Notes under the pieces: model-generated
Database searches by the model: none
Seen by the model: the letters and a program-made list of their open reading frames with translations, nothing else
What the model was told of the DNA's origin: nothing
NCBI GenBank assembly: GCA_049303575.1
Contig: JBAQNH010000002.1
Coordinates: 444,541-508,540, forward strand
DNA from: Microgenomates group bacterium
Lineage (GTDB): Bacteria > Patescibacteriota > Microgenomatia > UBA1400 > MFAQ01
Reading direction: 5' to 3'
DNA: 64,000 bases
Position numbers and translations under genes: made by a program
Shown here: in pieces, positions 7,379 to 64,000 of the stretch
Position numbering within the stretch: position 1 is the first letter of the stretch
Layout: each line of letters starts with the position of its first letter

Positions 7379-7397
7379 AAGGATAAATTTATTAGAA

Positions 7398-8246: not shown

Positions 8247-8262
8247 GGGAAGTAAAAACTAT

Positions 8263-45706: not shown

Positions 45707-45744
45707 GTGTTATGCTAGATGGAGTGAGAAGGTGTTTCTCTATA

Positions 45745-45895
45745 AATTAAATAGCGTGTGGCCTCACAGGAACCCCCTTTGAGGATACGAGGAAGAAGGT
45801 TGTCGATAATCTGCGGATGCCTTCTGGTTACGCCTTTCTAACCAAAAGGGTACATAGTACCCAAGATCGGTGATTCACAAATCTCACACTAGTTA
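45745..45895 (+). ncRNA. glmS_ribozyme: glmS ribozyme (GlcN6P-dependent self-cleaving riboswitch)
   Basis: AUAGCGUG...GAGGAUACGAGGAAGAAGGUUGUCGAUAAUCUGCGGAUGCCUUCUGG...AACCAAAAGGGUACAUAGUACCCAAG...AUCUCACA aligns block by block with the remembered Bacillus glmS ribozyme (A^GCGCC cleavage site, GACGAGGAUGGAGGUUAUCGAAUUUUCGGCGGAUGCCUCC core, AAACCAAGGGGGUGACUCCUUG pseudoknot arm). It sits immediately 5' of glmS. Confidence 0.8.
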
Positions 45896-45915
45896 TTAAT
45901 TGCTATGCAAAACCT

Positions 45916-47640
45916 ATGTGTGGAATTGTTGGATACCTCAGTCATGAGGAAAAACCTGTTGTCTCAATTTATCGCGGTCTAAAAAGATTGGAGTACCGAG
46001 GATACGATAGTTGGGGAATAGTATATTTTAAAAATAATCGGTTAGTGTCTCAAAAAGAAGTTGGAAAACTTAAGTCAGAGCCGCTGGATCTTCCTGAGTC
46101 GGTGCTGGCCTTGGGTCATACTCGTTGGGCAACCCATGGAGGAATTACTAAGGCAAATTCTCACCCCCAGTTTGACTGTACCGGCAATATTGCTTTGGTT
46201 CATAACGGCATAATTGAAAATTATTATCACCTAAAAAAAGAATTAGCCCAAAGAAAGCATCAAATTGTTTCTGAGACAGACACAGAATTGGTCGCTCATT
46301 TAATTGAGGAAAAGGTAGCGAAGGGGATATCAACAAGAGAAGCGGTGAAACAAGTATTTTTAAGATTAAAAGGGTATAACGCTCTCGTTGTAATGGACAA
46401 AATACAAAAGAGATTGTTTGCCGTAAAAAAGGGCTCGCCCCTTATTCTCGGTCTTAGTCAGAAAGTAAACTGGATTGCCTCCGACATCAATGCCCTAAGT
46501 GAAGCAGAAGAACTAATTGTTCTTCTGGACGATGAGTTGGCCGAAATCAGTGAAAACGGTGTCCGAGTAATAAACGTCAGTGATGGCAGAGAAATTCCCA
46601 AGCAAAGAATAAAAATGGTTGAAATAGAAAAGGAGAGTGAGATGGGAGAATACCAAAGCTTTTTAGAAAAAGAAATTAACGAACAACCCCAAGTTCTGGA
46701 AAGAATTGCCCAAGAAGACGGAGTGCAGATGAAAAAGATAATCGCGTTGGCTAAGAAAATGGATAAGGTGATTTTGGTTGGTTGTGGAACTTCATACTTC
46801 GCCGGATTGGTCGCCGCCGAAAAGCTAATTAAAAAACTTGGTAAGTGGGTAATCACTGTCTTGGCCTCTGAGTTTGATACCTATGCCAGCCTTGTTGACA
46901 AAAAAACTTTAATCATTGTTTTGACACAATCTGGGGAAACGATTGATGTTCTAGACGCCATTACCAAAGCAAAACAAAAAGGAGCCACTATTACCTCAGT
47001 TGTTAACGCCAAATACTCAAGTGTGCAAAGGATCTCTGCTGTTTGTCAGATGCTTTCTTGTGGTGTAGAAAAATGTGTAGCTTCCACGAAATCATTTGTC
47101 GCTCAAATGGCGGTTTTTGACAAAGCTCTTGGAATAGATTTAAGTCAAAGAATTAAAAATGTTAAATGGATTCTCAAAAACAAAAATAAGATTGATCCCC
47201 TGGCAAAAATGATTAGCCAAAAACAACACCTCTTTATCTTAGGTAGAGGCAAGATGTTGCCCCTTGCTCTGGAGGGAGCTTTAAAAATAAAAGAACTCAG
47301 CTATATCCACGCTGAAGGAATGGCTGGAGGCGAACTCAAACACGGAACACTCGCCCTCATCGATAAAGACAGCATTTGTATTGTTCTTGTTTCAAAAGAA
47401 AATACCAACGAAATGCTGGCCTCCTCCTTGGAGGTAAAAGCCAGGGGAGCCAGAGTAATCGGTATTGCTCAAAGCAAAGAAGATGTTTTTGACGAATTTT
47501 TACCCATTAGGGGAAAAGAAGATGATGAACAAACAGAAGCTGTCGTTTGGTTGCAACTACTATCGGAAAAGATTTGTCATCTAAAACATCTTGATCCGGA
47601 CAAGCCGAGAAATCTAGCCAAAAGCGTTACGGTCAAATAA
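45916..47640 (+). CDS. glmS: Glutamine--fructose-6-phosphate aminotransferase
   Basis: MCGIVGY (Cys2 nucleophile), a GHTRWATHG block, and two SIS domains including GCGTSYFAG and SQSGETIDVL; 574 aa. Confidence 0.9.
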   Translation: MCGIVGYLSHEEKPVVSIYRGLKRLEYRGYDSWGIVYFKNNRLVSQKEVGKLKSEPLDLPESVLALGHTRWATHGGITKANSHPQFDCTGNIALVHNGIIENYYHLKKELAQRKHQIVSETDTELVAHLIEEKVAKGISTREAVKQVFLRLKGYNALVVMDKIQKRLFAVKKGSPLILGLSQKVNWIASDINALSEAEELIVLLDDELAEISENGVRVINVSDGREIPKQRIKMVEIEKESEMGEYQSFLEKEINEQPQVLERIAQEDGVQMKKIIALAKKMDKVILVGCGTSYFAGLVAAEKLIKKLGKWVITVLASEFDTYASLVDKKTLIIVLTQSGETIDVLDAITKAKQKGATITSVVNAKYSSVQRISAVCQMLSCGVEKCVASTKSFVAQMAVFDKALGIDLSQRIKNVKWILKNKNKIDPLAKMISQKQHLFILGRGKMLPLALEGALKIKELSYIHAEGMAGGELKHGTLALIDKDSICIVLVSKENTNEMLASSLEVKARGARVIGIAQSKEDVFDEFLPIRGKEDDEQTEAVVWLQLLSEKICHLKHLDPDKPRNLAKSVTVK

Positions 47641-47704
47641 TCCGAACCTAATTCCACCTTTTGAGTTTTTGTTTTGTCTTTTCACATCCCCTTTACACAC
47701 CCCT

Positions 47705-47765
47705 TGACATCATATATATTGTGTAGCATACTGGAAAGTGGTGATGAGTGGTGAAGTATCCTATA
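47705..47765 (+). promoter_or_regulatory. Candidate mraZ promoter plus tandem GTGGTGA direct repeats (possible MraZ operator)
   Basis: TTGACA at 47705-47710, then a 16-17 nt spacer, then a weak CATACT. Directly downstream, AGTGGTGAT and GAGTGGTGAA form a direct repeat with 10-bp periodicity, ~35 nt before the mraZ ATG. Confidence 0.35.
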
Positions 47766-47797: not shown

Positions 47798-48229
47798 ATG
47801 TTTACTGGACGCTACTACCACAATCTAGAAGCCAAGGGGAGATTAGCAATACCCCAGTCCTTCAGGGACGAACTCGGATCAGGTGGCGTAATCACCTGGG
47901 GGCTCGATGGCTGTCTATTTCTTTTCCCCAAATCATACTGGCAGAAGCTTTCCGAGAAGCTGGCCTCGCTCTCACTAACCAACCCAGGAGCCCGAAACTT
48001 GACGCGTATCTTAGTACAGTCCGCCGTGGAATTGAATCTCGACAGTCAGGGTCGGACACTCATACCAGAACATCTCAGAGAACAGGTCAATATAAAAAAA
48101 CAGGTGGTAGTCGCCGGAACCCTTACCAGAATTGAAATCTGGGACAGAGACGCCTATCACGAGCACCTTGATTTAATAGCGCAAACGATTAACCAAGCCG
48201 ACCAAGGCTTAGCCGCAATCGACCTATGA
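47798..48229 (+). CDS. mraZ: Transcriptional regulator MraZ
   Basis: MFTGRYYHNLEAKGRLAIPQSFR (the MraZ DxxxR-type first repeat), a second half with a similar motif, 143 aa, and position as first gene of the dcw cluster. Confidence 0.85.
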   Translation: MFTGRYYHNLEAKGRLAIPQSFRDELGSGGVITWGLDGCLFLFPKSYWQKLSEKLASLSLTNPGARNLTRILVQSAVELNLDSQGRTLIPEHLREQVNIKKQVVVAGTLTRIEIWDRDAYHEHLDLIAQTINQADQGLAAIDL

Positions 48230-49161
48230 CAAACGTAATCGAAAGACACTACTCGGCCTATAAAGGCGAGTTAGCCAAACTCTACAGTTTTAAGAAAGGT
48301 TACCTCTTCTTAGACCTTACTCTAGGGGACGGTGGACACACCCAGGAAGCCTTAGAAGCCGGTTGTCGTGTTGTTTCCTTTGACATCGATGATGAGGCCA
48401 TTAAAAGGGCTATAAGTTTCGTCCCGGAAAAGTTCTCTCCCCAAATTATCGAACCGGAAAATATTTCGGAACTGGCCCCTAAAGACTTTAACTGGATTAT
48501 CATCCACAGTAATTTTACGAAAGTAGAAGAGATTGTTAAAAAGTTAGAACTCCCTCTCTTTGATGGCATCATGGTCGACCTCGGACCTTCCCAATTTCAA
48601 GTTCTTTCCGAAGGCCGTGGCTTTAGCTTTGCCAAAGATGAGCCTCTAGATATGCGTCTTACCAAAGATCTCGGTGTTACCGCCGCCGATCTTCTCGCCG
48701 TCTTAAACGAAGGTGAGTTAGTTGAGTTGTTTACTCTAGGAGACGAACCCTTTGCCAAGCCCCTGGCTCGTATTATTGTCAAACAAAGAACCATAAACCC
48801 AATAAAAACCACCAAACAGCTCGCCGATCTGGTTTTTAAAGTCAAAAAAGGTCGTCCTGGGAGAATTCATCCAGCCACCCAAGTCTTTATGGCTCTCCGC
48901 ATGGTCGTCAATCTTGAACGGGAAAACATCAACCTACTTTTACCCCAACTTCCCCAGCTTCTCAAAAAAGACGGCACCATGGGCATAATTAGCTTTCACT
49001 CAGGTGAAGACAAACTAATTAAAGACTTCATTAAGACCGAAGAAGAAAAGGGTGACATCAGCGCTATTAACGAAAAACCGATTGTTCCTTCGACATCTGA
49101 ATTATTAATCAGTCCTAGAACCAGAAGTGCCAAACTTAGACTCGCTAAAAAAACTAATTAA
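48226..49161 (+). CDS. rsmH: 16S rRNA (cytosine1402-N4)-methyltransferase RsmH/MraW
   Basis: DLTLGDGGHTQ matches the RsmH DxTxGxGGHS motif. The gene follows mraZ with ATGA overlap. Confidence 0.85.
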   Translation: MTNVIERHYSAYKGELAKLYSFKKGYLFLDLTLGDGGHTQEALEAGCRVVSFDIDDEAIKRAISFVPEKFSPQIIEPENISELAPKDFNWIIIHSNFTKVEEIVKKLELPLFDGIMVDLGPSQFQVLSEGRGFSFAKDEPLDMRLTKDLGVTAADLLAVLNEGELVELFTLGDEPFAKPLARIIVKQRTINPIKTTKQLADLVFKVKKGRPGRIHPATQVFMALRMVVNLERENINLLLPQLPQLLKKDGTMGIISFHSGEDKLIKDFIKTEEEKGDISAINEKPIVPSTSELLISPRTRSAKLRLAKKTN

Positions 49162-49435
49162 CTACAAAACCGCGTTCACCATTACCGCGATGGCCTTTGT
49201 TGGCCTTGCCGCCATCAATCTCATCGGTACCAACGCGCTTTCTACAGAAGGCATCGCCGTCAGTGAAGCTGAGACTCAAACCCTAAAACTGGAAAAAGAA
49301 AATCAGATCATTTCTGTTAAGATCGAAGAAGCCTCCCAGCTAAAAAATATTGAAGTACTGGCCGAGAATCGAGGGTTCATAAGATCAAAAAACATTGTCT
49401 TTGTACCCACCGCTCCGACCTTTGCCCAAAGATAA
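49127..49435 (+). CDS. ftsL: FtsL-like small bitopic division protein
   Basis: A single TM (FTITAMAFVGLAAINLIG) followed by a short periplasmic region, positioned between rsmH and ftsI. A plausible alternative start is the ATG at 49190. Confidence 0.5.
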   Translation: MPNLDSLKKLINYKTAFTITAMAFVGLAAINLIGTNALSTEGIAVSEAETQTLKLEKENQIISVKIEEASQLKNIEVLAENRGFIRSKNIVFVPTAPTFAQR

Positions 49436-49438
49436 TCG

Positions 49439-51115
49439 ATGTTAAACTCACAGGGTAATCTCATCCAAAAACGTCTCAAGACAATCATTTTTTTAATCCC
49501 TATTCTTTGTGTGATAATCGTCGGACGCTTATTCTACTGGCAGATCATTCGCGGACCGGAGTTGCAGACAAAAGCCAGCAACCAACACGAAACCACCACT
49601 TATCTTGAAGCCAAAAGAGGCAACATTCTTGATTTTGAAGGCAACATCCTTGCTGGAACCAAAAATCTTTATCATCTTTTTGTTTACAAACCCCAGTTAA
49701 CCATCGGTAACAACGATTTAATTGAAAAACTAATCGAAAATATGGACAAGGAACCGGAAGCAACCGACGAGCCGGATATAAGAGAGTATCTTAAGGGTCG
49801 TTTGGCTTTGGACTCAAACTGGGTTTCTCTCAAACACTATCTCACTCCCGACGCCAAAGACCGGATTGAGAAACTAGGGATTGCCGGGCTTGGATTTGAA
49901 GATGAGTATGTTCGTTTCTATCCCGAAGCCAGTATGTCAGCACACCTCTTGGGTTTTGTTGGTCAAGATGCTGCCGGAGAAGAGCAGGGATATTTTGGTC
50001 TGGAAGGATATCAAGATAGACTTTTACGTGGTCGGGGAGGCAAGATTAGAACCGAAAAAGATGCCAAAGGCAACCCCATCTTAATCGGCAACTACCAGTT
50101 TCTTCATGCCATTGAAGGCAAACCAATCACCACTACAATTAGCAAAAAAATTCAGTACCTTACTGAAAAAATGCTCAAGGAAGGTATCGAAAAATATCAA
50201 GCTTCTGCTGGAAACGTTATCATCCTTGAATCAAAAACAGGCAAAGTAAGAGCCATGGCCTCTTTTCCTAACTATGATCCAGGTAAATTTTCCGAGTTTC
50301 CTAATACCAGTTACAAGAATCCCAATGTTGCCGATCTTTTTGAGCCAGGATCTGTTTTCAAGGTCTTAATCATGGCCGCCGGTCTAAATGAAAAAGTGGT
50401 CGCACCGGAAACTCGATGTGATATCTGTGCTGGATCATTGGTTATTGGTAAGTACGCCATCAAAACTTGGAACGAAGTCTATCACCCCAACACCACCATG
50501 ACCGAAACCATCATAAACTCCGACAATACCGGTATGGTTTTTGTCGCGAGAAAACTGGGTAAGGATAAGTTTGTTGAGTATCTAAAAAAATATGGTCTGG
50601 GAAAGAAAACCGAGATCCAGTTGCAGGAAGAAGTGTCCGGCGTAATTCGCGAATCCAAAGACTATGGTGATATCGATCTGGCTACCAACTCCTTTGGGCA
50701 GGGTATTGCCGTTACTCCCATTCAGCTGGTCGCGGCGGTAAACACCATTGCTAATGATGGTTTCTACCTCAAACCAACCATTATTGAAAAAGAAGTTAGC
50801 AAAGGTAAACCCGTTCTCTCGGTAGAAGCAGTTGACCAAATGACCCAGATCATGATCCAAGCTGTCGATATGGGAGAAGCAAAATGGGCCAAACCTCAGG
50901 GACTGATTGTTGCCGGTAAAACAGGTACCGCCCAGATCCCAATTGAAGGCCATTACGATGCTGAAAAAACTATCGCCAGTTTCATTGGGTTTTTTCCAGC
51001 CAACAACCCGCAGTACACTATGTTAGTGACCCTTCGCGAACCTAAAACGTCACCTTGGGGATCCGAAACCGCCGCTCCTCTCTGGTTTGCAATTGCCAAA
51101 CAATTGCTGCTTTGA
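49439..51115 (+). CDS. ftsI: Penicillin-binding protein 2/3-type transpeptidase (FtsI)
   Basis: N-terminal TM, then GSVFKV (SxxK), SDNTG (SxN) and KTGTA (KTG) in the canonical order. Confidence 0.85.
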   Translation: MLNSQGNLIQKRLKTIIFLIPILCVIIVGRLFYWQIIRGPELQTKASNQHETTTYLEAKRGNILDFEGNILAGTKNLYHLFVYKPQLTIGNNDLIEKLIENMDKEPEATDEPDIREYLKGRLALDSNWVSLKHYLTPDAKDRIEKLGIAGLGFEDEYVRFYPEASMSAHLLGFVGQDAAGEEQGYFGLEGYQDRLLRGRGGKIRTEKDAKGNPILIGNYQFLHAIEGKPITTTISKKIQYLTEKMLKEGIEKYQASAGNVIILESKTGKVRAMASFPNYDPGKFSEFPNTSYKNPNVADLFEPGSVFKVLIMAAGLNEKVVAPETRCDICAGSLVIGKYAIKTWNEVYHPNTTMTETIINSDNTGMVFVARKLGKDKFVEYLKKYGLGKKTEIQLQEEVSGVIRESKDYGDIDLATNSFGQGIAVTPIQLVAAVNTIANDGFYLKPTIIEKEVSKGKPVLSVEAVDQMTQIMIQAVDMGEAKWAKPQGLIVAGKTGTAQIPIEGHYDAEKTIASFIGFFPANNPQYTMLVTLREPKTSPWGSETAAPLWFAIAKQLLL

Positions 51116-51141
51116 CGCCAACACTGTTAAAATATAAACAC

Positions 51142-51507
51142 ATGCAAAATCCATTCAGGATACACAGGATCAGTTTTAAGCACGCCTTTGATGGCTTTGT
51201 TTACTCTGTCCGCACTCAGCCAAATTTTCGCTTTCACCTTCTAGCTACGTTTATAGTCGTCTTGCTCGGTATCTATTTCTCCATCAGTATCATCGAATGG
51301 CTCATTTTGGTTTTTACTATCAACACTGTTCTGGCTGCCGAGATGGTCAATACTTCCATTGAAGCCATGGTTGACCTTATCACTCTCGAACGTAGAGCCG
51401 ACGCCAAAATAGCCAAAGACGTTGCCTCGGCTATGGTTCTTGTCTCTGCTATTCTCTCTATAATCGTCGGTTTAATAATCTTTTTACCCAAAATACTCAA
51501 CTTCTAA
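51142..51507 (+). CDS. dgkA: Diacylglycerol/undecaprenol kinase family protein (DgkA/UdpK)
   Basis: Three TM segments. EMVNTSIEAMVDLIT and AKIAKDVASAMVLVSAI match DgkA catalytic motifs (E..NTAIE..VD, KD.gSaAV). The track ORF starts at 51055; the ATG at 51142 avoids the overlap with ftsI. Confidence 0.7.
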   Translation: MQNPFRIHRISFKHAFDGFVYSVRTQPNFRFHLLATFIVVLLGIYFSISIIEWLILVFTINTVLAAEMVNTSIEAMVDLITLERRADAKIAKDVASAMVLVSAILSIIVGLIIFLPKILNF

Positions 51508-52533
51508 ATGGATTTACTACTTGGAATCTTAATTTTCTCCTTTATCGTTCATGCCTTTGCCATAGTTCCTTTTGTAAATTTCCTTTACCATCTTAAGTTT
51601 TTCAAAAACAAAACGGCTATTTCCAAAGATAAAACCGACGAAGCCTCTGTTCACATTCGTTCAAAATCTAGAACTCCGGAGGGTGGGGGACTACTAATCA
51701 TTGTCATTACCGGTCTCATTTTTGCCTTTGCTCTACCTTTATTAAGACGCTTGGGTTTTGAAATTACCCACGTTTATCCCATAAACGACGAGATTAATGT
51801 TATCTTTTTTACCTTTATTTCCTTTGGTTTACTCGGTCTCTACGACGACATCATCAAATTTTTTGAGTTGGATAGGGAACAGGGTTACACCGGCCTCAAA
51901 ACTCGTTACAAATTTCTCATTCAGGTAACTTTGGGTCTCATCATTGGCGCTATGATGTATCTCAATCTTGGTATCGACATTATTCACATTCCTTTCTTTG
52001 GTGTCATTCATTTTGGTCTTTGGTTTATTCCTCTGGCCGCTTTCCTTGTGGTCACTTTTGCCAACTCTGTAAACATTACCGATGGTATGGATGGTTTGGC
52101 TTCAGGCCTTTTGATGATTAGTCTGTTTGGCTTTCTTTTACTTTCTACTTCTATTCTCGACACCCCCCTTTCCATCTTTATTGCTCTCTGGCTTGGTGGT
52201 CTTATTGCCTTTCTTTATTTCAATGTTTTTCCCGCCCGTCTATTTTTGGGAGACGTTGGAGCCTTAGCTTTCGGTGCCGCTTTTGCCACGGTTGGTTTAC
52301 TTACCGGGAAAGTGATTGCCCTTTTAATTATTGGACTACCTTTCTTAGTTGATGGTTTAAGTAGCGTCCTACAGATTTTCTGGGTAAAAGTATTTCATCG
52401 TCGCATTTTTCCTATTGCCCCGCTCCACTATCTTCTCCTGAAAATTGGTTGGTCTGAACCAAAAATTGTTCAAAGAGCATGGCTTGTCGGCATCATGTTA
52501 GTTATCTTCGGTATCTGGTTAGCCATCATTTAA
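51508..52533 (+). CDS. mraY: Phospho-N-acetylmuramoyl-pentapeptide transferase
   Basis: ANSVNITDGMDGLASG (MraY DD/NxxD), the LGDVGALAFGAAFA region, and ~10 TM segments. Confidence 0.9.
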   Translation: MDLLLGILIFSFIVHAFAIVPFVNFLYHLKFFKNKTAISKDKTDEASVHIRSKSRTPEGGGLLIIVITGLIFAFALPLLRRLGFEITHVYPINDEINVIFFTFISFGLLGLYDDIIKFFELDREQGYTGLKTRYKFLIQVTLGLIIGAMMYLNLGIDIIHIPFFGVIHFGLWFIPLAAFLVVTFANSVNITDGMDGLASGLLMISLFGFLLLSTSILDTPLSIFIALWLGGLIAFLYFNVFPARLFLGDVGALAFGAAFATVGLLTGKVIALLIIGLPFLVDGLSSVLQIFWVKVFHRRIFPIAPLHYLLLKIGWSEPKIVQRAWLVGIMLVIFGIWLAII

Positions 52534-52536
52534 TTT

Positions 52537-53616
52537 ATGCTACGCCTCAAAGGCAATCATAATCGTCTCCCTACGACCATCCTTATTGCTGGAATATTGG
52601 CAGCTTGTTTTGGTCTCGTGGCGATATATGATGCTTCTGTTGTTGATGCTTTCAGGACTTTTGGCGACAAATTTCACTATGTCAAACAACAATCAGTTTG
52701 GATTGTCTTCGGCATTATCGTTGCTTTGATAACCTCAAATATTCCTATGTCCCTTTTCAAAAAATATGCCCACATTCTTTATGGTATTTCACTTTTTCTG
52801 ATGGTCATTGTCCTTATTCCCGGTATCGGTTCAAAGTTTCTTGGTGCAAGACGTTGGATTGATATTGGTTTCACCGTTATCCAACCATCGGAACTTCTTA
52901 AAATTACTCTGGTTATCTATCTTGCCAAATGGCTCGAACAGGAGCGTAGTCTCAAACACTTCCTCATTCTTCTGGCAGTGAATCTAGGTTTGATTATGCT
53001 TCAGCCGGATCTTGGTACCGCCCTCATCACCGTTGGTGTCTCCTTCATGGTTTACTATCTCTCGGGAGCCAAAATCAAGGAAATTTTTTCTTTTAGCGCT
53101 ATCTTGGCTGTAGCCATCAGTGCTTTAATTATTTTTTCTCCTTACCGTATGGACAGGGTAAAAACCTTTATGGATCCAACGACTGACCCCCTAGGTGCTT
53201 CATACCACATCAACCAAGTCCTCTACGGTCTCGGTTCGGGAGGATTCTCCGGTGTTGGTGTTGGTAAATCCCGTCAAAAATATGCCTATCTTCCCGAAGC
53301 CACAACTGACTCTATTTTTGTGATCATCGCCGAGGAGTTTGGTTTCCTTGGTAGCAGTCTCTTTATCCTTACTCTCACCGGACTTCTCCTGGCCTCTTTC
53401 AAGGTCGCCCTGAATGTTCATGATAAATTTGATAAGCTACTGTCTAGTAGTATCACTTTATTATTTTTAATTCAGATATTTGTGAATCTAAGTTCAATGG
53501 TTGCTCTAGTTCCACTCACCGGCGTACCCTTACCCTTCATTTCCTATGGTGGCTCAAGTCTGGTTACCAACTTCATTGCCCTAGGTCTTCTTATTAATAT
53601 CTCCAAAAGAGTATGA
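52537..53616 (+). CDS. ftsW: SEDS-family peptidoglycan glycosyltransferase FtsW/RodA
   Basis: QPSELLKITLVIYLAKWL and the C-terminal PLPFISYGGSSLV are SEDS signature regions. Confidence 0.85.
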   Translation: MLRLKGNHNRLPTTILIAGILAACFGLVAIYDASVVDAFRTFGDKFHYVKQQSVWIVFGIIVALITSNIPMSLFKKYAHILYGISLFLMVIVLIPGIGSKFLGARRWIDIGFTVIQPSELLKITLVIYLAKWLEQERSLKHFLILLAVNLGLIMLQPDLGTALITVGVSFMVYYLSGAKIKEIFSFSAILAVAISALIIFSPYRMDRVKTFMDPTTDPLGASYHINQVLYGLGSGGFSGVGVGKSRQKYAYLPEATTDSIFVIIAEEFGFLGSSLFILTLTGLLLASFKVALNVHDKFDKLLSSSITLLFLIQIFVNLSSMVALVPLTGVPLPFISYGGSSLVTNFIALGLLINISKRV

Positions 53617-54692
53617 AACCCTTAATTGCTTTTACCGGCGGTCACCACAACAGTACCTTAGTAATTGCTAAATCATTTCAAAAAGAAGACTACCCCATTA
53701 TCTGGATCGGCCACAAATTTGCTTCGAAGGGGGATAAATCACTCTCGGCTGAATATCAGGAAATTACCGGATCAGGAATCCATTTTCTGGAACTAAAAAC
53801 CGGCAAGTTTTATCAAAAATTTAACCCACTTGAATGGCTTAAGATTGCCTTCGGTTTCTTCCAGGCCTTTATTTATTTAATAACCTACCGACCAAAATTA
53901 ATCTTTTCTTCTGGTGGTTATCTTTCGGTTCCGGTGGTCATTGTTGGTTGGCTTCTCGGCATTCCCTCAATCACCCATGAACAAACAGTTATTGCCGGTT
54001 GGGCAAACAAAGCCATCTCACCTTTCGTTAAGAAAATTCTTCTAACTCACGTCTCATCACTCCCAAACTTTCCCCAAGAAAAATCTGTTGTTGTTGGTCT
54101 CCCGATAAGGAAAGAACTTTTAAACAATAAATACACCAAAAAATTTGATCCCAAACTTGTCTACATTTCCTGTGGCAAACAAGGTTCTCACACGATAAAC
54201 AAAGCTCTTTTTCCAATTCTTCCCCAACTTGTTAAAAAATTTACGGTAGTCCATCAAACAGGTGCTAATACACTAACCAAAGACTCCGACCGTGCTAGAA
54301 GAATCAAAGAAAAGCTAGGGGAGTACAAAGACCGTTATATTTTTGCCCCTTATTTTTTTGCCGAAGACGCCGCTACTTACATACGCTCCTCGACAATTGT
54401 TGTTGGTCGAGCCGGGGCTCACTCTGTCTACGAACTAATGGTTCTTGAAAAAAAAGCGGTTCTTATTCCTATTCCTTGGGTGTCTCACAATGAACAATTT
54501 TTAAATGCCAAACTCGCCGAAGAACAAATTGGCAGCACTATTCTGGAAGAAAAAGATCTCACCCCGGAGTCTTTATATCAGGCTATCATTGAGTTAGTTA
54601 AACGTCCATCAATCAAGCCATCAACCAAATTAGCGACCAATGCTACAGAGAAGATTACTCAAATCATCCGTGAACACCTCCAAGAGACTTAA
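53613..54692 (+). CDS. murG: UDP-GlcNAc:lipid I N-acetylglucosaminyltransferase MurG
   Basis: FTGGHHNSTL (G-loop) and GGYLSVPVVIVGWLLGIPSITHEQTVIAGWANK, which compares with MurG GGYVSGP...IPVVLHEQN.IAG..NK. Confidence 0.85.
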   Translation: MKPLIAFTGGHHNSTLVIAKSFQKEDYPIIWIGHKFASKGDKSLSAEYQEITGSGIHFLELKTGKFYQKFNPLEWLKIAFGFFQAFIYLITYRPKLIFSSGGYLSVPVVIVGWLLGIPSITHEQTVIAGWANKAISPFVKKILLTHVSSLPNFPQEKSVVVGLPIRKELLNNKYTKKFDPKLVYISCGKQGSHTINKALFPILPQLVKKFTVVHQTGANTLTKDSDRARRIKEKLGEYKDRYIFAPYFFAEDAATYIRSSTIVVGRAGAHSVYELMVLEKKAVLIPIPWVSHNEQFLNAKLAEEQIGSTILEEKDLTPESLYQAIIELVKRPSIKPSTKLATNATEKITQIIREHLQET

Positions 54693-55479
54693 TCGACGCG
54701 CTCGTATCGGTTTGGAAACGTTAAAAATAAACTCCAAGAAATTTTTACCGATTCTTGTCTTGATTCCTCTTATTTTTTTTCTTAATAGTCTTTTTATTAT
54801 CAAAAAAATAAACTGTTCTTTTAACAATGAAGTCTGTCCTCAAGAAATACAAATAGTTCAAAATAATTTGCTTGGTTCAAACTCGCTTTTTATAAATCAA
54901 AAAGATCTACTTACTTTTTTTAAAGCGGTTTATCCGATAGATAATATGAACATCGGCTATCACGCCTTTAACACACTCAATATTAATCTCAAGGGCAACA
55001 ACCCTTACGTCGAGGCGGACGTCTACTTAGTTACTAGCCTTCCCAAGCTCTCCATGGACCAAGCTCCCAGCACTACCGACTCGGCTGGTTGGTGGGTCAA
55101 GCCATCGGGAGAACTGGAGAACTTCGTTCTCACCCAAAAAGGACTGGGTTTTAATCTTTGGGAAAACGGCTCGATGTCTCAAACGGCGACAACGGGAGCC
55201 AATATAAGTTTCATTTTTATCGAAAAACCAACCCCGGAAATAGTGTCTTCGGTCTACAAAATGGTGAGGTTAGTTCTTAAATATCTTGATGTATCCGATA
55301 TTTATATCGTTGGCCGTCGCTCTTTCTTGAGCCGAACAGGTGAACCTGATATCATAATAGGTGTACCTTTTGACGAAGGAAGCTTGGTTTCTGCTTTACA
55401 ATCACTAAGCTACCTCGCTACAATTAAAAAAGACGCAAAAGTGATCGATTTAAGTTTTAAAAATCCGATCATAAGATAA
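54640..55479 (+). CDS. ftsQ: FtsQ/DivIB-like division protein
   Basis: An N-terminal basic stretch and single TM (ILVLIPLIFFLNSLFII), then a POTRA-sized periplasmic domain. Located between murG and ftsA. The start is uncertain because it overlaps the end of murG. Confidence 0.5.
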   Translation: MLQRRLLKSSVNTSKRLNRRARIGLETLKINSKKFLPILVLIPLIFFLNSLFIIKKINCSFNNEVCPQEIQIVQNNLLGSNSLFINQKDLLTFFKAVYPIDNMNIGYHAFNTLNINLKGNNPYVEADVYLVTSLPKLSMDQAPSTTDSAGWWVKPSGELENFVLTQKGLGFNLWENGSMSQTATTGANISFIFIEKPTPEIVSSVYKMVRLVLKYLDVSDIYIVGRRSFLSRTGEPDIIIGVPFDEGSLVSALQSLSYLATIKKDAKVIDLSFKNPIIR

Positions 55480-55483
55480 AAAT

Positions 55484-56758
55484 ATGGCTAAACCACAAGG
55501 AATAAATGCGATTGATATCGGCTCCAGTAAAATTACCTGTTTGATTACTGTTCCCGGTCAAGACGACTCAAAAATTAACTTAGTTGGTGCCGCCACAGTC
55601 ACCAGTCGTGGAGTTAGAAGAGGACAAATTGTCAACATTGAAGAGTGCGTCAGTTCCATTACCGATTGCGTCGAGTCAGCCGAAAGAATGGCCGGGTTTG
55701 GCGTTGACTCTGCTTTTATTTCCATCTCCGGCGAGAATATTTTGTCTCAAAATTCCCAAGGCTTAGTTGCCATTACCGAAACAGAGGGAGAAATTGGTCA
55801 CGACGATGTTTTTCGAGTAATCGAAGCCGCCAGAGCCGTGTCCTTGCCCACCTCTAGAGAAATCATTCATGTTTTACCCCGTGAGTTTATTGTTGATGGT
55901 CAGCATGGCATTAAAGACCCGACCGGTATGTCCGGCGTTCGTTTGGAGACCGAGGCCCATCTCATTACCGGGCTTACTCCTGCTATAAAAAATGTCACTC
56001 GTTGTGTCAATGAACTGGGCGTCAATGTTTCCGGTCTTGTTTTTACCGGTCTTGCTTCTGCCGAGTCGGTTTTAACCGATACGGACAAAGAGCTCGGTGT
56101 AGTTCTCGTCGACATTGGCGGGGGCACTACCAGTGTTTGTATTTATGTTGAAGGCTCCTGTGTTTACTCTGCCGTAATTCCTGTCGGCGCCAAAAAAATC
56201 AGTGATGACATTGCCATAGGTTTACAAATCAGCGTCGATAGTGCTGAAAAAATCAAACACTACTTAGGTAAAGCTAAACATGAAGCCGATCCTTCAGATA
56301 CCAAAAGTCTAGACGAAATTGATCTATCTAAAATTGGTATTACCGAAGACGTCAAAAAAGTTTCTCGCAAAACAATTGTTGAAGGCATAATCAGACCTCG
56401 TCTAAATGAAATCTTCACCATGGTTAACCATGTTATCAAACAGTCCGGTCTCGAAGGTCAGACACCTGCCGGAGTCATCGTCACCGGCGGAGGTGCTCTA
56501 ACTATTAACTGTACCGAAAGTTGCCGACGTGTCATGCAACTCCCAGCCAAGCTAGGTGTCCCAACTGGTCTTCATGGCCTTACTGATGAAATTAACTCTC
56601 CTGTTTACGCCACCTCGGTTGGTCTTGTTCTCTATGGCTATCACCACAAAGAACAACAGTCTGCCCCAAGATTAAAACTGTCTGGTATGATAAAAGGAAT
56701 TCCCGGCAAACAGTTTGTCGGAAAAGCAATCGATTTTATCAAATCATTCTTACCATAA
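55484..56758 (+). CDS. ftsA: Cell division protein FtsA
   Basis: [15 protein letters not shown] (actin-fold phosphate-1) and [15 protein letters not shown] (phosphate-2); 424 aa; directly upstream of ftsZ. Confidence 0.85.
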
Positions 56759-57932
56759 AGTGGGCCTAGTCAAACCGGATACAAACACCTTCGCCAAAAT
56801 AAAAGTCCTCGGAGTTGGAGGAGGCGGTAACAACGCCGTAAACTCCATGATTTCCTCAGGAAAAATCAAAGGAGTTGAGTTTATTGCCGTCAACACTGAT
56901 ATGCAGGCATTAATAAACTCCAATGCCGATATCAAACTTCAGATTGGTGAAAAGGGTACTAAAGGTCTAGGTTCGGGATCAAATCCCGAGATTGGTGCCC
57001 AAGCTGCCGAAGAATCACGCGAAAAAATTAAAGAAGTCCTTATGGGTGCTGATATGGTTTTCATTACTGCCGGTGAAGGTGGCGGAACCGGAACTGGTGC
57101 TGCTCCCATCATCGCTGAAATCTCCAGGAAAGATGTCGGTGCTCTCACCGTTGCTGTCGTTACCAAGCCTTTCCTTTTTGAAGGTGCTCGTCGTCGTGTT
57201 CAAGCCGAGGAGGGGATTGAGAATCTCAAAGATAAAGTTGACACTCTAATTGTCATTCCCAATCAAAGACTGATCGACATGGCCAAAAAAGAACAAACTC
57301 TTCTTGATGCCTTCAAAATGGCCGACTCTGTACTGGGTCAGGGGGTTCAAAGTATCTCCGATCTCATCACTATCCCCGGGCTTGTCAACGTTGACTTTGC
57401 CGATGTCAAAACCGTTATGACCAATGCTGGCTCTGCCCTTATGGGTGTCGGAAGAAGTTCTGGTGAAAAACGTGCCATTATTGCTGCAAACGCTGCTGTT
57501 AGCTCTCCTCTGTTGGAAATCAGTATCGAAGGTGCTCGAGGCATTCTCTTCAATATTGCCGGTAGTAAGAGTTTAACTCTCACCGAAATTAACGAAGCTT
57601 CATCCATCATTACTCAGTCTGCTGATCCAGATGCCAACATCATCTTCGGCACCACAATAAGAGAAGATCTTGGTGATGAAATTCAAATTTCCGTCATCGC
57701 TGCCGGTTTCGATGAAAACCGTCGTCATTTTGGTAGTATCCCTTCCATAAATCCCTATCTCACTCCCAAGCCGGTTATTTCTCAAGAACCGGAGAAGCCA
57801 CTTGATGAATCTGTCGAAGAGTCCCAGCCCTCAGCGCAAGTTAAGCTTGCCGGCAAATACAAAGTGCACCACAACGAGGTCGATATCGAAGACGATCTGG
57901 ACATCCCAGCATTCCTTAGAAATAAATATTAA
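56715..57932 (+). CDS. ftsZ: Cell division GTPase FtsZ
   Basis: [15 protein letters not shown], the tubulin signature [10 protein letters not shown], and the C-terminal DIPAFLRNK conserved peptide. Confidence 0.9.
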
Positions 57933-59138: not shown

Positions 59139-59612
59139 CTAATTTAAACTAGCTATGGTGAAGTTTAGATATGAGGCAAACGTCACCCACAAGATATATG
59201 GCACCATTAACCAACTTGCCACTTTATTCACTTTTTCAAACGAGACTATCGTTATCAAGATAAATATCCATAAAACCAGTATTTCCCCAAAAGCCAACCA
59301 AAAGTTTCCCATACCGAAGAAAAGGACAGACCATAAAACATTAAGAACGAGTTGAGCGGCAAACAGCTTCAAAGACATTCGCACCTTATTACTCATTTTT
59401 GTCGACCAGACAAGGTAAAGAGCCACACCCATCATGATAAAAAGAGACGTCCAAACTGGTCCAAACAGCCAAGATGGAGGGATCCATACTGGTCTATTAA
59501 TCGTCAAATACCAGCTTTGGACAGCCGGTGTCGTAAAAAGGGAACCTAAGACTCCAGCCGAAAGGGAAATCGCTAAAGAGAGTAACAATCGCCAAAAACC
59601 TTTTATCTTCAT
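59139..59612 (-). CDS. tspO: TspO/MBR family tryptophan-rich sensory protein
   Basis: WYLTINRPVWIPPSWLFGPVWTSLFIMMGVALYLVW matches the TspO core (WY..L.KP.w.PP..fg.vWt.LY..mg); five TM segments. Confidence 0.8.
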   Translation of the reverse strand: MKIKGFWRLLLSLAISLSAGVLGSLFTTPAVQSWYLTINRPVWIPPSWLFGPVWTSLFIMMGVALYLVWSTKMSNKVRMSLKLFAAQLVLNVLWSVLFFGMGNFWLAFGEILVLWIFILITIVSFEKVNKVASWLMVPYILWVTFASYLNFTIASLN

Positions 59613-60026: not shown

Positions 60027-60091
60027 TTTTGTTTGTTAATTGCTAACTGAAATCATCTTACTACCATTGCTCAAAACCCGCCATTTTTGGT

Positions 60092-60120
60092 TTGACATTT
60101 ATCCTATAATAGAGTACAAT
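60092..60120 (+). promoter_or_regulatory. Candidate sigma70-type promoter giving a leaderless or near-leaderless transcript for the VanW-like gene
   Basis: TTGACA at 60092-60097, a 17-nt spacer, and TACAAT at 60115-60120. The first ATG of the downstream frame with a TM is at 60130, only ~7-10 nt past the predicted TSS. Confidence 0.4.
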
Positions 60121-60129
60121 ACCCACCTT

Positions 60130-60783
60130 ATGATAAAAAACCTGATCTTAAGTTTGTATTTTACGTTGTTCTCCAGCGGGATTCCTGTTGTCCAAAATAT
60201 TCTTCCTCAAAAAGAGAATGTTTTATCTTCTCGAACAATCTCCCTCGAGAATCGTTACCCTTCCCAAAGAGTGAGTGATGTCTTCAAAGACAACATCTTA
60301 CTCAATTTAGCTTATCTTGATGGGCGTGTTAATACAGCCAAAGACATTAACTGGTCTGAGATGGAAAACTCTTTCCGATCAGAATTTACTCTTCAACCCG
60401 ATGAAACTTTTGCCTATCACGACGCAGTTCTTTCCAAGTACGAAGGAAAGGTAGCAAAAACCACCGAGGCTCACTTTAACAGCCAAGACGGTTTCAAAAC
60501 CGATGGCTATCTATACGGAGACGGTGTCTGTCATCTAGCTTCTTTGATAAACTGGGCTGCCAGAGATGCCAACCTGGAGGTTTTAGCTCCCACTAACCAT
60601 AACTTTGCCAACATCCCAGAAGTTCCCAAAGAATATGGTGTGTCTATCTACTACAACCCGGCAAATAAATCTGTTGGTGCAAATCAAAACTTGTACATCA
60701 CCAACAATCAGAACAAACCGATAAACTTTGTTTTTGAATATAAAGATGGACAGCTTTCTGTTACCATTACCACCCAGGCCTAA
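60130..60783 (+). CDS. VanW-like domain membrane-anchored protein
   Basis: N-terminal TM (MIKNLILSLYFTLFSSGIPVV) and GYLYGDGVCHLASLINWAARDANLEV, which resembles the VanW core (G.GVCQ.ST.L..A). The track ORF starts at 60040, only 13 bp from the divergent cupin start, so the ATG at 60130 is preferred. Confidence 0.5.
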   Translation: MIKNLILSLYFTLFSSGIPVVQNILPQKENVLSSRTISLENRYPSQRVSDVFKDNILLNLAYLDGRVNTAKDINWSEMENSFRSEFTLQPDETFAYHDAVLSKYEGKVAKTTEAHFNSQDGFKTDGYLYGDGVCHLASLINWAARDANLEVLAPTNHNFANIPEVPKEYGVSIYYNPANKSVGANQNLYITNNQNKPINFVFEYKDGQLSVTITTQA

Positions 60784-61174: not shown

Positions 61175-61360
61175 CAAAAAGTAACAAAAGCGTTTGAGCC
61201 GGGCAATCACCCAGGCAAGCTGGAAGAAGAAAATAGTAGACCTTCCCGGGGAAGCCCGTAATAGCTACAATCAAGTAAAAAATTAGATGGTACCGTCAGA
61301 AAACGATGTTTAATGACTCTAATCCTGAAAGACTTATGTCTTGGCAGGATTTTTTTGGAA
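61175..61360 (+). promoter_or_regulatory. T-box riboswitch leader (Ile, AUC specifier) controlling ileS
   Basis: AAUUAGAUGGUACCGUCAG at 61281-61299 against the T-box consensus AAUUAGGGUGGNACCGCG; its UGGU bulge can pair with tRNA ACCA. A candidate specifier loop GGGCAAUCACCC carries AUC followed by A at 61206-61209. The terminator hairpin CCTGAAAGAC-TTAT-GTCTTGGCAGG is followed by ATTTTTTT at 61324-61357. A TATAAT -10 element lies at 61169-61174. The ileS ATG is at 61368. Confidence 0.7.
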
Positions 61361-61367
61361 TAAAAAA

Positions 61368-64000
61368 ATGAAAAACAAAACCGTAAAACCATTGGAAGTA
61401 CAGTACACTCCTTCAATAATTGAAGAGGAGATCATTGGGTACTGGAAAGAAAATCAAACTTTTGAAAAATCGGTTTCTCAAAGAGACAGCAAAGGCACTT
61501 TTCGCTTCTATGATGGTCCTCCTTTTGTCACCGGCAAGCCTCATTATGGGCATCTTTTAGGGTCAATCATTAAAGACGTTATTCCTCGTTATCAAACCAT
61601 GAAAGGTAAGCATGTCGACAGAGTCTGGGGTTGGGACTGCCACGGTCTTCCTATTGAAAATAAAGTTGAAAAGCTATTGGGAGTCAACTCTAAAAAGGAA
61701 ATTGAAACCCTGGGTATCGATAAATTTGTTTCTGCTTGCAAAACTTATGTTCACGATGTCTCCTCGGAATGGCAATGGTATATCGATAAGGTCGGCCGTT
61801 GGGTTGATATGGAACATTCTTATCGCACCATGGACAAAGACTACATGGAGTCGGTTATCTGGGTTTTTAAACAGCTTTACGAAAAAAACCATGTTTATAA
61901 AGGCAAAAGAGTTTCCCTTTTTTGTCCCAGATGTGAGTCTCCCATCAGTAATTTCGAAATTGCTATGGACAACTCTTACCGAGACGTCACTGACCCTTCG
62001 GTCTTTCTTAAATTTCGAGTAAAAGGTGAAAATCAATTTTTCCTTGCCTGGACAACTACCCCCTGGACACTTCCCAGTAACTTTGCCCTAGCTGTTTCCG
62101 TTGATGATACTTATGTTTTGGTCGAACAAGATAATGTTCAATATATTCTCGCCAAGGCTCGTGTAGAAGAAACTTTGGGTCACGACGGCCTCAGAATAAT
62201 TAAGGAATTTAAAGGTAGTGAACTTGTCGGCAAAGAATATGAACCACTTTATACCTACTATGACTCTACCAAAGCCGACTACAAAGTCTATCCCGCAGAC
62301 TTCGTCTCCATGGAAGATGGTACCGGAATTGTTCATATCGCTCCTGGATTTGGCGAAGACGACACCGAGCTCGGTAAAAAATATGGACTTTCAATGGGGG
62401 AGTCGGTTGATGATACTGGTACTATGGATCCTAAAGTTACTGTCGCCCAAGGCAAATATTTCAAAGCCGCCGACAAATTAGTGCTCGAAGATCTGGTCAA
62501 TAGAGGTTTAATACTAAAGAGCACAAAAATTACTCATAGCTATCCTCACTGTCATCGTTGTGGAACTGCTTTACTCTATAAAAGCCAAATAGCTTGGTAT
62601 ATCAATATTCAAGATATTAAAAGTAAATTAATTGAAACTAACAAAGACATCAACTGGGTCCCCAGTCATTTCAAGGATGGTCGTTTTAAACTGGGTATAG
62701 AGTCTGCTCCGGACTGGTGTATAAGTCGTTCTCGTTACTGGGGGACACCACTTCCCATCTGGGAGTGTGAGTGCGGTGAAAGAATCGTTCCTGGATCAAT
62801 TGCTGATATTGAGAGTCTTTCCGGTCAAAAGGTGAAGGATCTTCATCGTCCGGACATTGACGAAATCTATTTGACCTGTCCCAAGTGTGACAAAAAAGCT
62901 AAACGAGTTCCCGAGGTACTTGACGTTTGGATTGAGTCGGCTTCTATGCCTTATGCACAAGTGCATTACCCTTTTGAAAATGTGGATAAGTTCAAAGATA
63001 GCTTCCCGGCTGACTTTATTACTGAATACACAGGACAACTACGGGCCTGGTTTTACGTTACTCATGTTGTCTCCAATCTATTAATGGACTCTAAAGCGTT
63101 TAAAAACGTCGTGGTTAGCGGTGTCATCATGGGGACCGACGGCCACAAAATGAGCAAGAGTTTAGGAAATTTTCCCGACCCTAAAGACTCACTCCAAAAA
63201 TTTGGTGGCGACTCTCTTAGACTGTATCTTATGGGCAGTTCAATCGCTCTCGGTCAAGACATTATTGTCTCCGAAGAAGACTGGGCAAACGAACTCAAAA
63301 CCACCCTTATGTTACTTTGGAACTCCTACAAATATTTTGTCTCTTATGCTTCTCTCGAAAACTGGGAGCAAAAAACAGAATTTGCCAAAGAACCTGGTGT
63401 TCTAGATCGCTGGATTCTCACGAGGTTGGACGAAACAGTTCTCATGATGGACAACTACCTTAGTGTCTATCAAATTCCCAAAAGCGTGGCCATGCTGAAA
63501 AGTTTCATATCTGATCTTTCCACCTGGTATATTCGCCGTTCTCGTGACCGTGTTGGTCCTAGTGCCCAAGATCAAGCCGACAAAGAAGCTGCCTATATCA
63601 CCATGTCCACCGTTTTTAGTGTTCTTTTCAAAGCCGCGGCTCCAATTATTCCCTTCATTTCAGAGTATCTTTATCGTCATCTTACCGGAGAGGAATCGGT
63701 CCATCTTGAAGACTGGCCAACTGTCAAAAACGACAAGGTAATCGACAAGGAACTTTTGGCTCAAATGGTTCAGATTAGAAGAATTTGTGAAATGGGCAAT
63801 GGGGAGAGAAAGAATCTTGGTCTTCCAATCAAACAAGCCCTAGCCTCAATCACTGTTAAAGGAGAATTTTCCTCACTCAAAGAGGAAAAAGAACTTCTTC
63901 AGTTAATTAAAGAAGAACTAAACGTAGAAGAAGTCTTCTTCGCCGAAGGTAAAGAAGGGGTCAGCTACGACACCGTTATTACCACCGATCTCAAAGACAA
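61368..64000 (+). CDS. ileS: Isoleucyl-tRNA synthetase (type 2), 3'-truncated by the window edge
   Basis: MKNKTVKPLE..., PPFVTGKPHYGHLLG (HIGH-class motif), WDCHGLPIE, HSYPHCHRCGTALLY, DWCISRSRYWGTPLPIW and HKMSKSLGN (KMSKS at 63150) all lie in one open frame reaching position 64000. The ORF track omits it because no stop falls inside the window. Confidence 0.9.
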   Translation, partial: MKNKTVKPLEVQYTPSIIEEEIIGYWKENQTFEKSVSQRDSKGTFRFYDGPPFVTGKPHYGHLLGSIIKDVIPRYQTMKGKHVDRVWGWDCHGLPIENKVEKLLGVNSKKEIETLGIDKFVSACKTYVHDVSSEWQWYIDKVGRWVDMEHSYRTMDKDYMESVIWVFKQLYEKNHVYKGKRVSLFCPRCESPISNFEIAMDNSYRDVTDPSVFLKFRVKGENQFFLAWTTTPWTLPSNFALAVSVDDTYVLVEQDNVQYILAKARVEETLGHDGLRIIKEFKGSELVGKEYEPLYTYYDSTKADYKVYPADFVSMEDGTGIVHIAPGFGEDDTELGKKYGLSMGESVDDTGTMDPKVTVAQGKYFKAADKLVLEDLVNRGLILKSTKITHSYPHCHRCGTALLYKSQIAWYINIQDIKSKLIETNKDINWVPSHFKDGRFKLGIESAPDWCISRSRYWGTPLPIWECECGERIVPGSIADIESLSGQKVKDLHRPDIDEIYLTCPKCDKKAKRVPEVLDVWIESASMPYAQVHYPFENVDKFKDSFPADFITEYTGQLRAWFYVTHVVSNLLMDSKAFKNVVVSGVIMGTDGHKMSKSLGNFPDPKDSLQKFGGDSLRLYLMGSSIALGQDIIVSEEDWANELKTTLMLLWNSYKYFVSYASLENWEQKTEFAKEPGVLDRWILTRLDETVLMMDNYLSVYQIPKSVAMLKSFISDLSTWYIRRSRDRVGPSAQDQADKEAAYITMSTVFSVLFKAAAPIIPFISEYLYRHLTGEESVHLEDWPTVKNDKVIDKELLAQMVQIRRICEMGNGERKNLGLPIKQALASITVKGEFSSLKEEKELLQLIKEELNVEEVFFAEGKEGVSYDTVITTDLKD

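Follow-up and report, generated by a model that had tools for sequence, protein, structure and literature searches.

Why does the gene for a small membrane lipid kinase stand directly in front of mraY, in a cluster of cell-wall and division (dcw) genes that holds none of the Mur ligase genes? The question is raised by a 64-kb stretch of DNA, referred to here as the window, in which 11 tightly packed + strand open reading frames (ORFs) at 47798–57932 read mraZ-rsmH-ftsL(like)-ftsI-dgkA-mraY-ftsW-murG-ftsQ-ftsA-ftsZ when the ORF list is combined with Pfam and NCBIfam matches (Table 1). The closest DgkA and MraY sequences are those of Candidatus Collierbacteria and other Microgenomates, the nearest species representatives being loci L006 and L007 (the latter GW2011_GWA2_42_17) with 96–97% MraY identity, and the host is a Microgenomate of the Collierbacteria family, within the Candidate Phyla Radiation (CPR). 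Judging from gene context and from the sequence of the kinase, we consider it probable that this is a reduced dcw operon in which a polyprenol (undecaprenol) kinase supplies undecaprenyl phosphate (C55-P, or Und-P) to MraY by way of translational coupling.

Intergenic gaps across the 11-gene cluster range from -53 to +26 nt, and at the dgkA/mraY junction (TAAATG) the TAA stop of dgkA is followed by the ATG of mraY with a gap of 0 nt. The start of dgkA lies at ATG 51142, and independent gene calls on public contigs also give a protein of 121 aa. In MraY the motifs DD, NxTDGxDG and GD are conserved, as is the His that opens HHH. The changed HHH motif was considered as a sign of a new substrate and rejected, as H-(L/Y)-x-L is common to all Microgenomates, including those that bear mur genes nearby. 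The gene order given by the original prediction is correct, with a tentative label for ftsL and an identification of ftsQ that came from profile comparison. The ftsL-like protein reaches 5.5e-4 and 19.8 bits against the NCBIfam model NF053549 (FtsL_Actino), whose cutoff is 55, and no homology to E. coli FtsL was detected by hhalign (probability 0.1%), so that ‘ftsL’ is a positional label only; public gene calls start this protein later, giving 81 aa. The single FtsQ sequence gave no Pfam match. A profile of 23 position-equivalent CPR proteins, however, matched FtsQ chains in the PDB at E=4e-6, aligning positions 21–241 onto 28–249, nearly full length, and reached a probability of 90% against E. 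coli FtsQ by hhalign. For ftsZ, the GTG at 56760 lies two bases past the ftsA stop codon (56756–56758) and is the start used in relatives. A terminator scan found no convincing intrinsic terminator within the cluster.

The absence of the Mur ligases, also claimed by the original prediction, was borne out. When all frames of the 64-kb window were searched by tblastn (E<=0.01), 45 Mur, Ddl, Alr and MurI queries taken from E. coli and Microgenomates had 0 matches. Pfam scans of essentially every other ORF likewise revealed no Mur ligase, MurA, MurB, Ddl, Alr or MurI, and phmmer gave no signal of Mur ligases or Ddl. The idea that Mur genes were masked by alternative starts or frames was rejected on the strength of this tblastn result and of the lack of free space in the cluster. 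One could also suspect the entire arrangement of being an artefact of assembly, binning or start-codon annotation, since the DNA comes from a metagenome, dgkA overlaps ftsI if its longest ORF is taken (start TTG 51055), and the evidence from single sequences for the FtsL and FtsQ labels is weak. Yet the identical order is found on independent Logan, JGI, ENA and NCBI assemblies, including one closed 1.09-Mb genome and 26 GTDB species representatives, and in independent calls on public contigs whose MraY is identical to that of the window. Together with the 121-aa DgkA of those gene calls and the absence of Mur homology in any frame by tblastn, these assemblies refute the artefact, which we regard as extremely improbable.

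To place the junction in its wider context, 80 species-level loci were fetched around MraY and annotated with the window proteins and with E. coli Mur references. dgkA lies directly 5′ of mraY on the same strand in 48/73 Microgenomates species-level loci, with MraY identities to the window of 43–97%, and since the surrounding genes differ among loci that have the pair, this adjacency is more than chance. Within the Collierbacteria family (MraY at least 67% identical), the exact window order is present in 26 of the 28 loci with upstream sequence, among them the closed 1.09-Mb genome MFAS01000001 (L016; PMC7143001). Identity to the window across this family is 66–96% for DgkA and 67–97% for MraY. 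Among more distant Microgenomates (MraY 43–66%), dgkA directly precedes mraY in 22/45 loci, including those of Chisholm-, Gottesman-, Ames- and Roizmanbacteria. In most of the 54 loci with the pair the two genes are -4 to +11 nt apart, and in four of them +22 to +74 nt, larger negative gaps stemming from naive longest-ORF starts. No such pair occurs in the loci of Shapiro-, Beckwith- and Curtissbacteria or in one locus of Woesebacteria.

Of the 22 distant loci, 19 have the pair among mur genes, with murE, murC, murB or murA upstream and, in many, murD downstream; the typical order is ftsI-murE-(murD)-murC-murB-murA-(glmS)-dgkA-mraY-(murD)-ftsW-murG-ftsQ-ftsA-ftsZ. Because these 19 loci hold dgkA-mraY together with mur genes, the pair is older than, and independent of, the removal of these genes. 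It is ancestral to much of the Microgenomates, and it was in the Collierbacteria family that mur genes later disappeared from the cluster. This corrects two parts of the original prediction: the kinase does not stand in place of the Mur genes, and its ‘insertion’ is a trait of Microgenomates and not of this one genome. Two sister loci depart from the pattern. In L032 dgkA is missing (9972–10001) and mraY follows ftsI after 28 nt, while in L031 (769–2097) dgkA is truncated after ∼86 codons, has lost the third transmembrane (TM) helix and the K94/D95 region, and forms an in-frame fusion with mraY; the rest of the cluster is kept in both, and dgkA is thus decaying in this sister sub-lineage.

What kind of kinase is encoded? 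The original assignment to the DgkA family holds: the protein matches PF01219 (DAGK_prokar) over profile positions 1–102 of 102 with 115.9 bits against a cutoff of 22.3, and phmmer matches it to E. coli DgkA structures at 1.5e-7. Residues E69, N72, E76, D80, K94 and D95, which we take to be the catalytic and nucleotide-binding residues of E. coli DgkA, all have equivalents in the window protein, and these are at least 99% conserved in 143 Microgenomates sequences. The AlphaFold model (pLDDT 91.1) has helices at 12–25, 27–46, 50–82 and 85–120, a surface helix followed by three long ones, and hydropathy peaks fall at 33–51 and 97–115. By tblastn, the window DgkA shows 41–45% identity to its homologues in Firmicutes and Bacteroidetes (E 1e-17 to 1e-19) and 26–33% to those in Proteobacteria (E 1e-3 to 1e-8). 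In a tree built by neighbour joining (NJ) only and from a small taxon sample, the bipartition that separates the proteobacterial type from all others, CPR included, was recovered in 200/200 bootstraps, and the window DgkA grouped with Firmicutes, Actinobacteria and Bacteroidetes sequences. An alignment with annotated sequences from the matched records and from E. coli shows that the window DgkA shares the Gram-positive-type motifs: SFxHAxxG, NFxxH for AFRQE, VDL for VDR, AKIAKDVxAGxV for SGRAKDMGSAAV, and Gly or Ala for W112. As judged by these sequence comparisons, the window kinase is placed on the Gram-positive, undecaprenol-kinase-type side of the family and not with the proteobacterial diacylglycerol (DAG) kinases, as the phylogenetic check proposed with the original prediction was meant to decide. 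Gram-positive undecaprenol kinases are the sole family homologous to the E. coli enzyme (PMC6408475), and B. subtilis DgkA is an undecaprenol kinase that feeds the Und-P pool (PMC5723303).

These observations suggest a working model for the operon, which, if our reading of it is right, has been pared down to regulators, proteins of the divisome and the enzymes for the membrane stages of peptidoglycan synthesis (MraY, MurG, FtsW and FtsI). The substrate of the kinase, its coupling to MraY, the co-transcription of the two genes and any role in salvage are all suggested by genomic context and subfamily placement. DgkA would convert undecaprenol (C55-OH) to C55-P at the cytoplasmic face of the membrane at the expense of ATP. 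Because the stop and start codons abut, dgkA and mraY would be translationally coupled on one transcript, and through this coupling the kinase would be made with and beside MraY, such that the enzyme that makes the carrier and the enzyme that uses it are produced together and inserted side by side. C55-P would then pass directly into lipid I, lipid II and on to FtsW and FtsI, and the Und-P-dependent glycan enzymes of the window would tap the same pool. Lipid biosynthesis is incomplete in the sibling lineage Ch65, as in most CPR bacteria (PMC7143001), and for this reason the kinase could possibly also serve as the entry point for scavenged polyprenol.

Several points weigh against such a supply role. 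The Gram-positive references in our comparison are S. aureus, Listeria, Bacillus sp. and Brevibacillus orthologues and not the characterised B. subtilis and S. mutans proteins, the only ones for which undecaprenol kinase activity is known (PMC5723303), and within PF01219 as a whole substrate specificity is established for few proteins only. The top Foldseek matches of the model are to E. coli DgkA, at non-significant scores (E>1, TM-score 0.51–0.61). Phenotypes of the B. subtilis dgkA mutant are only mild (PMC5723303). The orthologue in Firmicutes and Actinobacteria lies in a phoH-ybeY-dgkA-era context, and linkage to mraY is therefore no general property of the subfamily. About half of the Microgenomates outside the Collierbacteria family lack the pair, and since L032 lost dgkA and L031 truncated it while keeping the cluster, any coupling is dispensable. 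Finally, promoter and terminator scans showed no enrichment over shuffled sequence.

The loss of dgkA from L031 and L032, whose clusters are otherwise kept, would also fit a different kinase, one that acts on DAG or has broad specificity for lipids and recycles or salvages DAG into phosphatidic acid for the membrane phospholipids of a lipid-scavenging CPR cell, in which case its adjacency to mraY would be historical and without functional coupling. The family name and its best-studied member, E. coli DgkA, point to DAG; the catalytic residues, common to both activities, are all present, and the sequence is to that extent compatible with a DAG substrate; and salvage would be useful, as Ch65, like most CPR bacteria, has only incomplete pathways for lipids and fatty acids and depends on acquired lipids (PMC7143001). 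We nevertheless think a DAG kinase unlikely here. The window protein lies on the non-proteobacterial side of the 200/200 bipartition and carries Gram-positive-type motifs, and the characterised member of that type, from B. subtilis, is an undecaprenol kinase. Moreover, the junction with mraY persists down to 44% MraY identity while the neighbouring mur genes are reshuffled, a persistence that is hard to reconcile with pure hitchhiking.

If the mur genes are not in the cluster, where are they? Separate loci were found only in sister lineages, and no MurE was found for the clade of the window itself. Mur genes stand alone as murE-murD/murB/murC in Collierbacteria RIFOXYB1_FULL_49_13 and, in other sister lineages, as murE-murI-murD/murC...murA-ddl or murE-murA-ddl-murB/murF, and one such separate locus shares the metagenome-assembled genome CAYQLI01 with a minimal cluster. 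Links at the level of a metagenome-assembled genome came from sister lineages only, namely CAYQLI01 and RIFOXYB1_FULL_49_13. In L034, whose MraY is 66% identical to that of the window, murA, murD, murE, murF and ddl adjoin mraY-ftsW-murG-ftsQ-ftsA-ftsZ, and mraZ, rsmH, ftsL, ftsI and dgkA are not there, the cluster being split at the dgkA/mraY boundary. A proposed synteny between the right flank of the window (NUDIX, cupin) and the sequence that borders the L090 mur locus was rejected, as there are no orthologues.

In the Collierbacteria family itself, the 10 kb around mraY hold no mur gene in any of the 28 loci for which upstream sequence is available. Two exhaustive searches with MurE queries (that of L034 and the protein P0132) covered database proteins down to ∼40% identity, and for matches of at least ∼47% identity members were enumerated for all multi-member clusters but one. 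No MurE of at least ∼47% identity and no enumerated cluster member lies on the long contigs that carry the DgkA of the window’s clade (1.09, 0.91, 0.84, 0.84 and 0.64 Mb), the first of which corresponds to the complete Collierbacteria genome MFAS01000001. In this heavily sampled clade MurE was thus not found, MurE being the only Mur protein searched for and the search being indirect. The only MurE binned with a core-clade cluster is P0132 (ERZ1426840/CAISER01), and its link to the clade is unreliable because the bin contains two different mraY genes (L029 and L077) and no relative of P0132 exceeds 60% identity, either among database proteins or in a scan of metagenome DNA. The genomic contexts of four further proteins from the search for Mur ligases (P0157, P0229, P0143 and P0136) yielded no link.

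Such results would be expected if the Mur pathway itself had been lost in the genus-level clade of the window, leaving MraY, MurG, FtsW and FtsI to work on host precursors or on a non-canonical substrate. The MurE searches that came up empty on the clade’s long contigs, the orphan status of P0132 in a bin with two mraY genes, and the lack of mur genes both within 10 kb of mraY in the 28 family loci and in the 64-kb window all speak in this direction. We regard the loss as improbable all the same. The transpeptidase site of FtsI is intact, which implies stem peptides ending in D-Ala-D-Ala, and the catalytic motifs of MraY are the same as in Microgenomates with adjacent mur genes; from these two intact active sites it can be argued that stem-peptide precursors are still in use. 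DgkA and MraY remain close to those of the window throughout the family, at the identities given above, mur loci occur elsewhere in sister lineages whose cluster is reduced in the same way, and CPR bacteria are generally reported to synthesise peptidoglycan (PMC7143001). In addition, the searches cover MurE only, and a divergent or horizontally replaced MurE below ∼40% identity would escape them. The Mur pathway of the window’s clade is either very divergent or absent, and a divergent or replaced MurE is more likely than true loss.

The most far-reaching version of this loss, in which the clade gave up the whole cytoplasmic Mur pathway but retained dgkA-mraY-ftsW-murG-ftsI as a conserved module, DgkA activates host polyprenol, and MraY loads imported UDP-MurNAc-peptide or a non-canonical substrate, we judge to be quite unlikely. 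Its consequences would be considerable: the wall would be made from scavenged blocks, a cell-wall auxotrophy not described for free-standing bacteria. The missing MurE of the best-sampled Collierbacteria clade could mean a replaced Mur pathway or a real precursor auxotrophy.

Table 1. Features of the dcw cluster and its 5′ flank in the window
Feature	Position	Strand	Evidence and remarks
glmS ribozyme	45742–45900	+	RF00234, 45.6 bits, over gathering score; 5′ of glmS
glmS	45916–47640	+	directly upstream of mraZ
candidate operon promoter, glmS-mraZ spacer	47692–47732	+	two overlapping sigma-70-like matches, each 10/12; weak, scan not enriched over shuffles
mraZ	47798–48229	+	PF02381 5.7e-34; TIGR00242 119 bits, over cutoff
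rsmH (mraW)	48226–49161	+	PF01795 6e-67; TIGR00006 215 bits, over cutoff
ftsL-like bitopic protein, 102 aa (tentative)	49127–49435	+	position between rsmH and ftsI; one TM helix at residues 16–34, then heptad-like stretch
ftsI, class B penicillin-binding protein transpeptidase	49439–51115	+	PF03717 and PF00905 6.7e-69; S305xxK, S361xN, K494TG intact
dgkA-family lipid kinase, Gram-positive (undecaprenol-kinase) type by sequence, 121 aa	51142–51507	+	PF01219 8.7e-34
mraY	51508–52533	+	PF00953; TIGR00445 162 bits, below 192-bit cutoff
ftsW, SEDS (shape, elongation, division and sporulation) glycosyltransferase	52537–53616	+	PF01098 2.5e-95; TIGR02614 335.7 bits, just below 337.5 cutoff
murG	53613–54692	+	PF03033 and PF04101; TIGR01133 1.5e-45, below cutoff
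ftsQ, 279 aa	54640–55479	+	one TM helix at residues 30–48; profile match to FtsQ structures; just before ftsA
ftsA	55484–56758	+	PF02491 4.5e-30 and PF14450 2.8e-29
ftsZ	56715 (GTG 56760 likelier start)–57932	+	TIGR00065 412 bits, over cutoff

The rest of the window is largely devoted to glycans. A ∼45-kb glycan-biosynthesis region upstream of the cluster encodes glycosyltransferases of families GT1, GT2 and GT4, two Wzx-type flippases, Wzy_C, two PMT_2 proteins, a Bac_transf initiating transferase and sugar-nucleotide enzymes, which agrees with the many Und-P-dependent glycosylation genes that the original prediction had noticed. The glmS ribozyme in front of glmS is also present in the close relatives L001 and L007 and was undetected before glmS in Beckwith-, Chisholm- or L041-type Microgenomates. 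Small housekeeping genes lie downstream; ftsZ is directly followed by genes for a LapA-domain protein and a NUDIX hydrolase, with a VanW-like protein (60040–60783) and a TspO/MBR family membrane protein (59139–59612) a few kb past ftsZ. An ORF of 890 aa with the HIGH motif of class I aminoacyl-tRNA synthetases (IleRS-like; 61330–64000, +), absent from the program-made ORF list, extends past the right end. From ∼6000 to 64000 the + strand is C-rich throughout, with a GC skew of -0.05 to -0.25 and a cumulative skew that falls monotonically, matching the whole-chromosome strand asymmetry reported for Collierbacteria and the order UBA1400 (PMC7143001). A low-GC block at ∼4000–10000 (0.28, compared with 0.40–0.45 elsewhere) contains glycosyltransferase and methyltransferase genes, partly on the opposite strand, and may be a horizontally acquired cassette.

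The locus bears on an enzyme whose physiological role is still vague, even in B. subtilis. The DgkA-type undecaprenol kinase is known from those mild mutant phenotypes, and where its free undecaprenol comes from is unknown (PMC5723303). That its stop-to-start junction with mraY is kept across a deep Microgenomates radiation is a separate line of genomic evidence for a role of the Gram-positive-type enzyme in the lipid II cycle. It could also mean that in lipid-auxotrophic CPR bacteria the polyprenol carrier is possibly salvaged and re-phosphorylated, and not only made de novo. The literature searched contained no paper tying dgkA to the dcw cluster or to CPR.

Among known systems, the window kinase most resembles the undecaprenol kinases of Gram-positive bacteria (B. 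subtilis DgkA and its S. mutans homologue). Like these, it is a PF01219 protein of ∼120 aa with a predicted three TM helices after an N-terminal amphipathic helix, falls on the same side of the tree, and shares with them the SFxHAxxG, N...H, VDL and AKIAKDVAAGAV-like motifs; identity to the Bacillus, Listeria, S. aureus and Brevibacillus orthologues is 39–45%. The equivalent of E28 is Gln in 98% of CPR sequences and Glu, Gln or Asp in Firmicutes. The genomic setting is different, dgkA lying in phoH-ybeY-dgkA-(cdd)-era-recO in Firmicutes and Actinobacteria and within the dcw operon, abutting mraY, in the window. E. coli DgkA (PDB 2KDC, 3ZE3) has the fold family and the six catalytic residues in common with the window protein, and the four-helix layout in common with its AlphaFold model, but is only 24% identical and is split from it by the 200/200 bipartition; the window protein lacks the proteobacterial signatures AFRQE (His at E34), VDR (Leu at R81), SGRAKDMGSAAV and W112. 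Unlike the window gene, E. coli dgkA adjoins plsB and lexA. Since the contexts of dgkA in Firmicutes, Actinobacteria and Proteobacteria all differ from that of the window, linkage to mraY is particular to Microgenomates. That context can track substrate is seen elsewhere, in Salinivibrio, where dgkA adjoins the gene for a DAG-generating phosphoethanolamine(-lipid A) transferase (PMC7559476). Homologues of dgkA also lie beside PAP2 phosphatase genes in Parabacteroides and Acinetobacter (L103, 3001–3940; L110, 538–1479; L111, 610–1545, including Salinivibrio).

The cluster as a whole can be compared with the canonical dcw cluster of E. coli, mraZ-rsmH-ftsL-ftsI-murE-murF-mraY-murD-ftsW-murG-murC-ddlB-ftsQ-ftsA-ftsZ. 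Both have the same ends, the shared genes in the same order on one strand, and overlapping or abutting ORFs, whereas murE, murF, murD, murC and ddl are all missing from the window and a lipid kinase gene is a conserved member. Other Microgenomates clusters (Chisholmbacteria L037; L080/L081) have the dgkA-mraY junction and ftsW-murG-ftsQ-ftsA-ftsZ as in the window, but keep murE, (murD), murC, murB and murA 5′ of dgkA, some with glmS, and often murD after mraY; none of these mur genes is in the cluster in the Collierbacteria family. A synteny study of dcw recognised 17 genes and concluded that there was ‘likely no gene gain’ since the bacterial ancestor (PMC8871954). The lipid kinase gene lies outside those 17, and a cluster usually described as only losing genes since the last bacterial common ancestor has in the Microgenomates a non-canonical, conserved member added to it.

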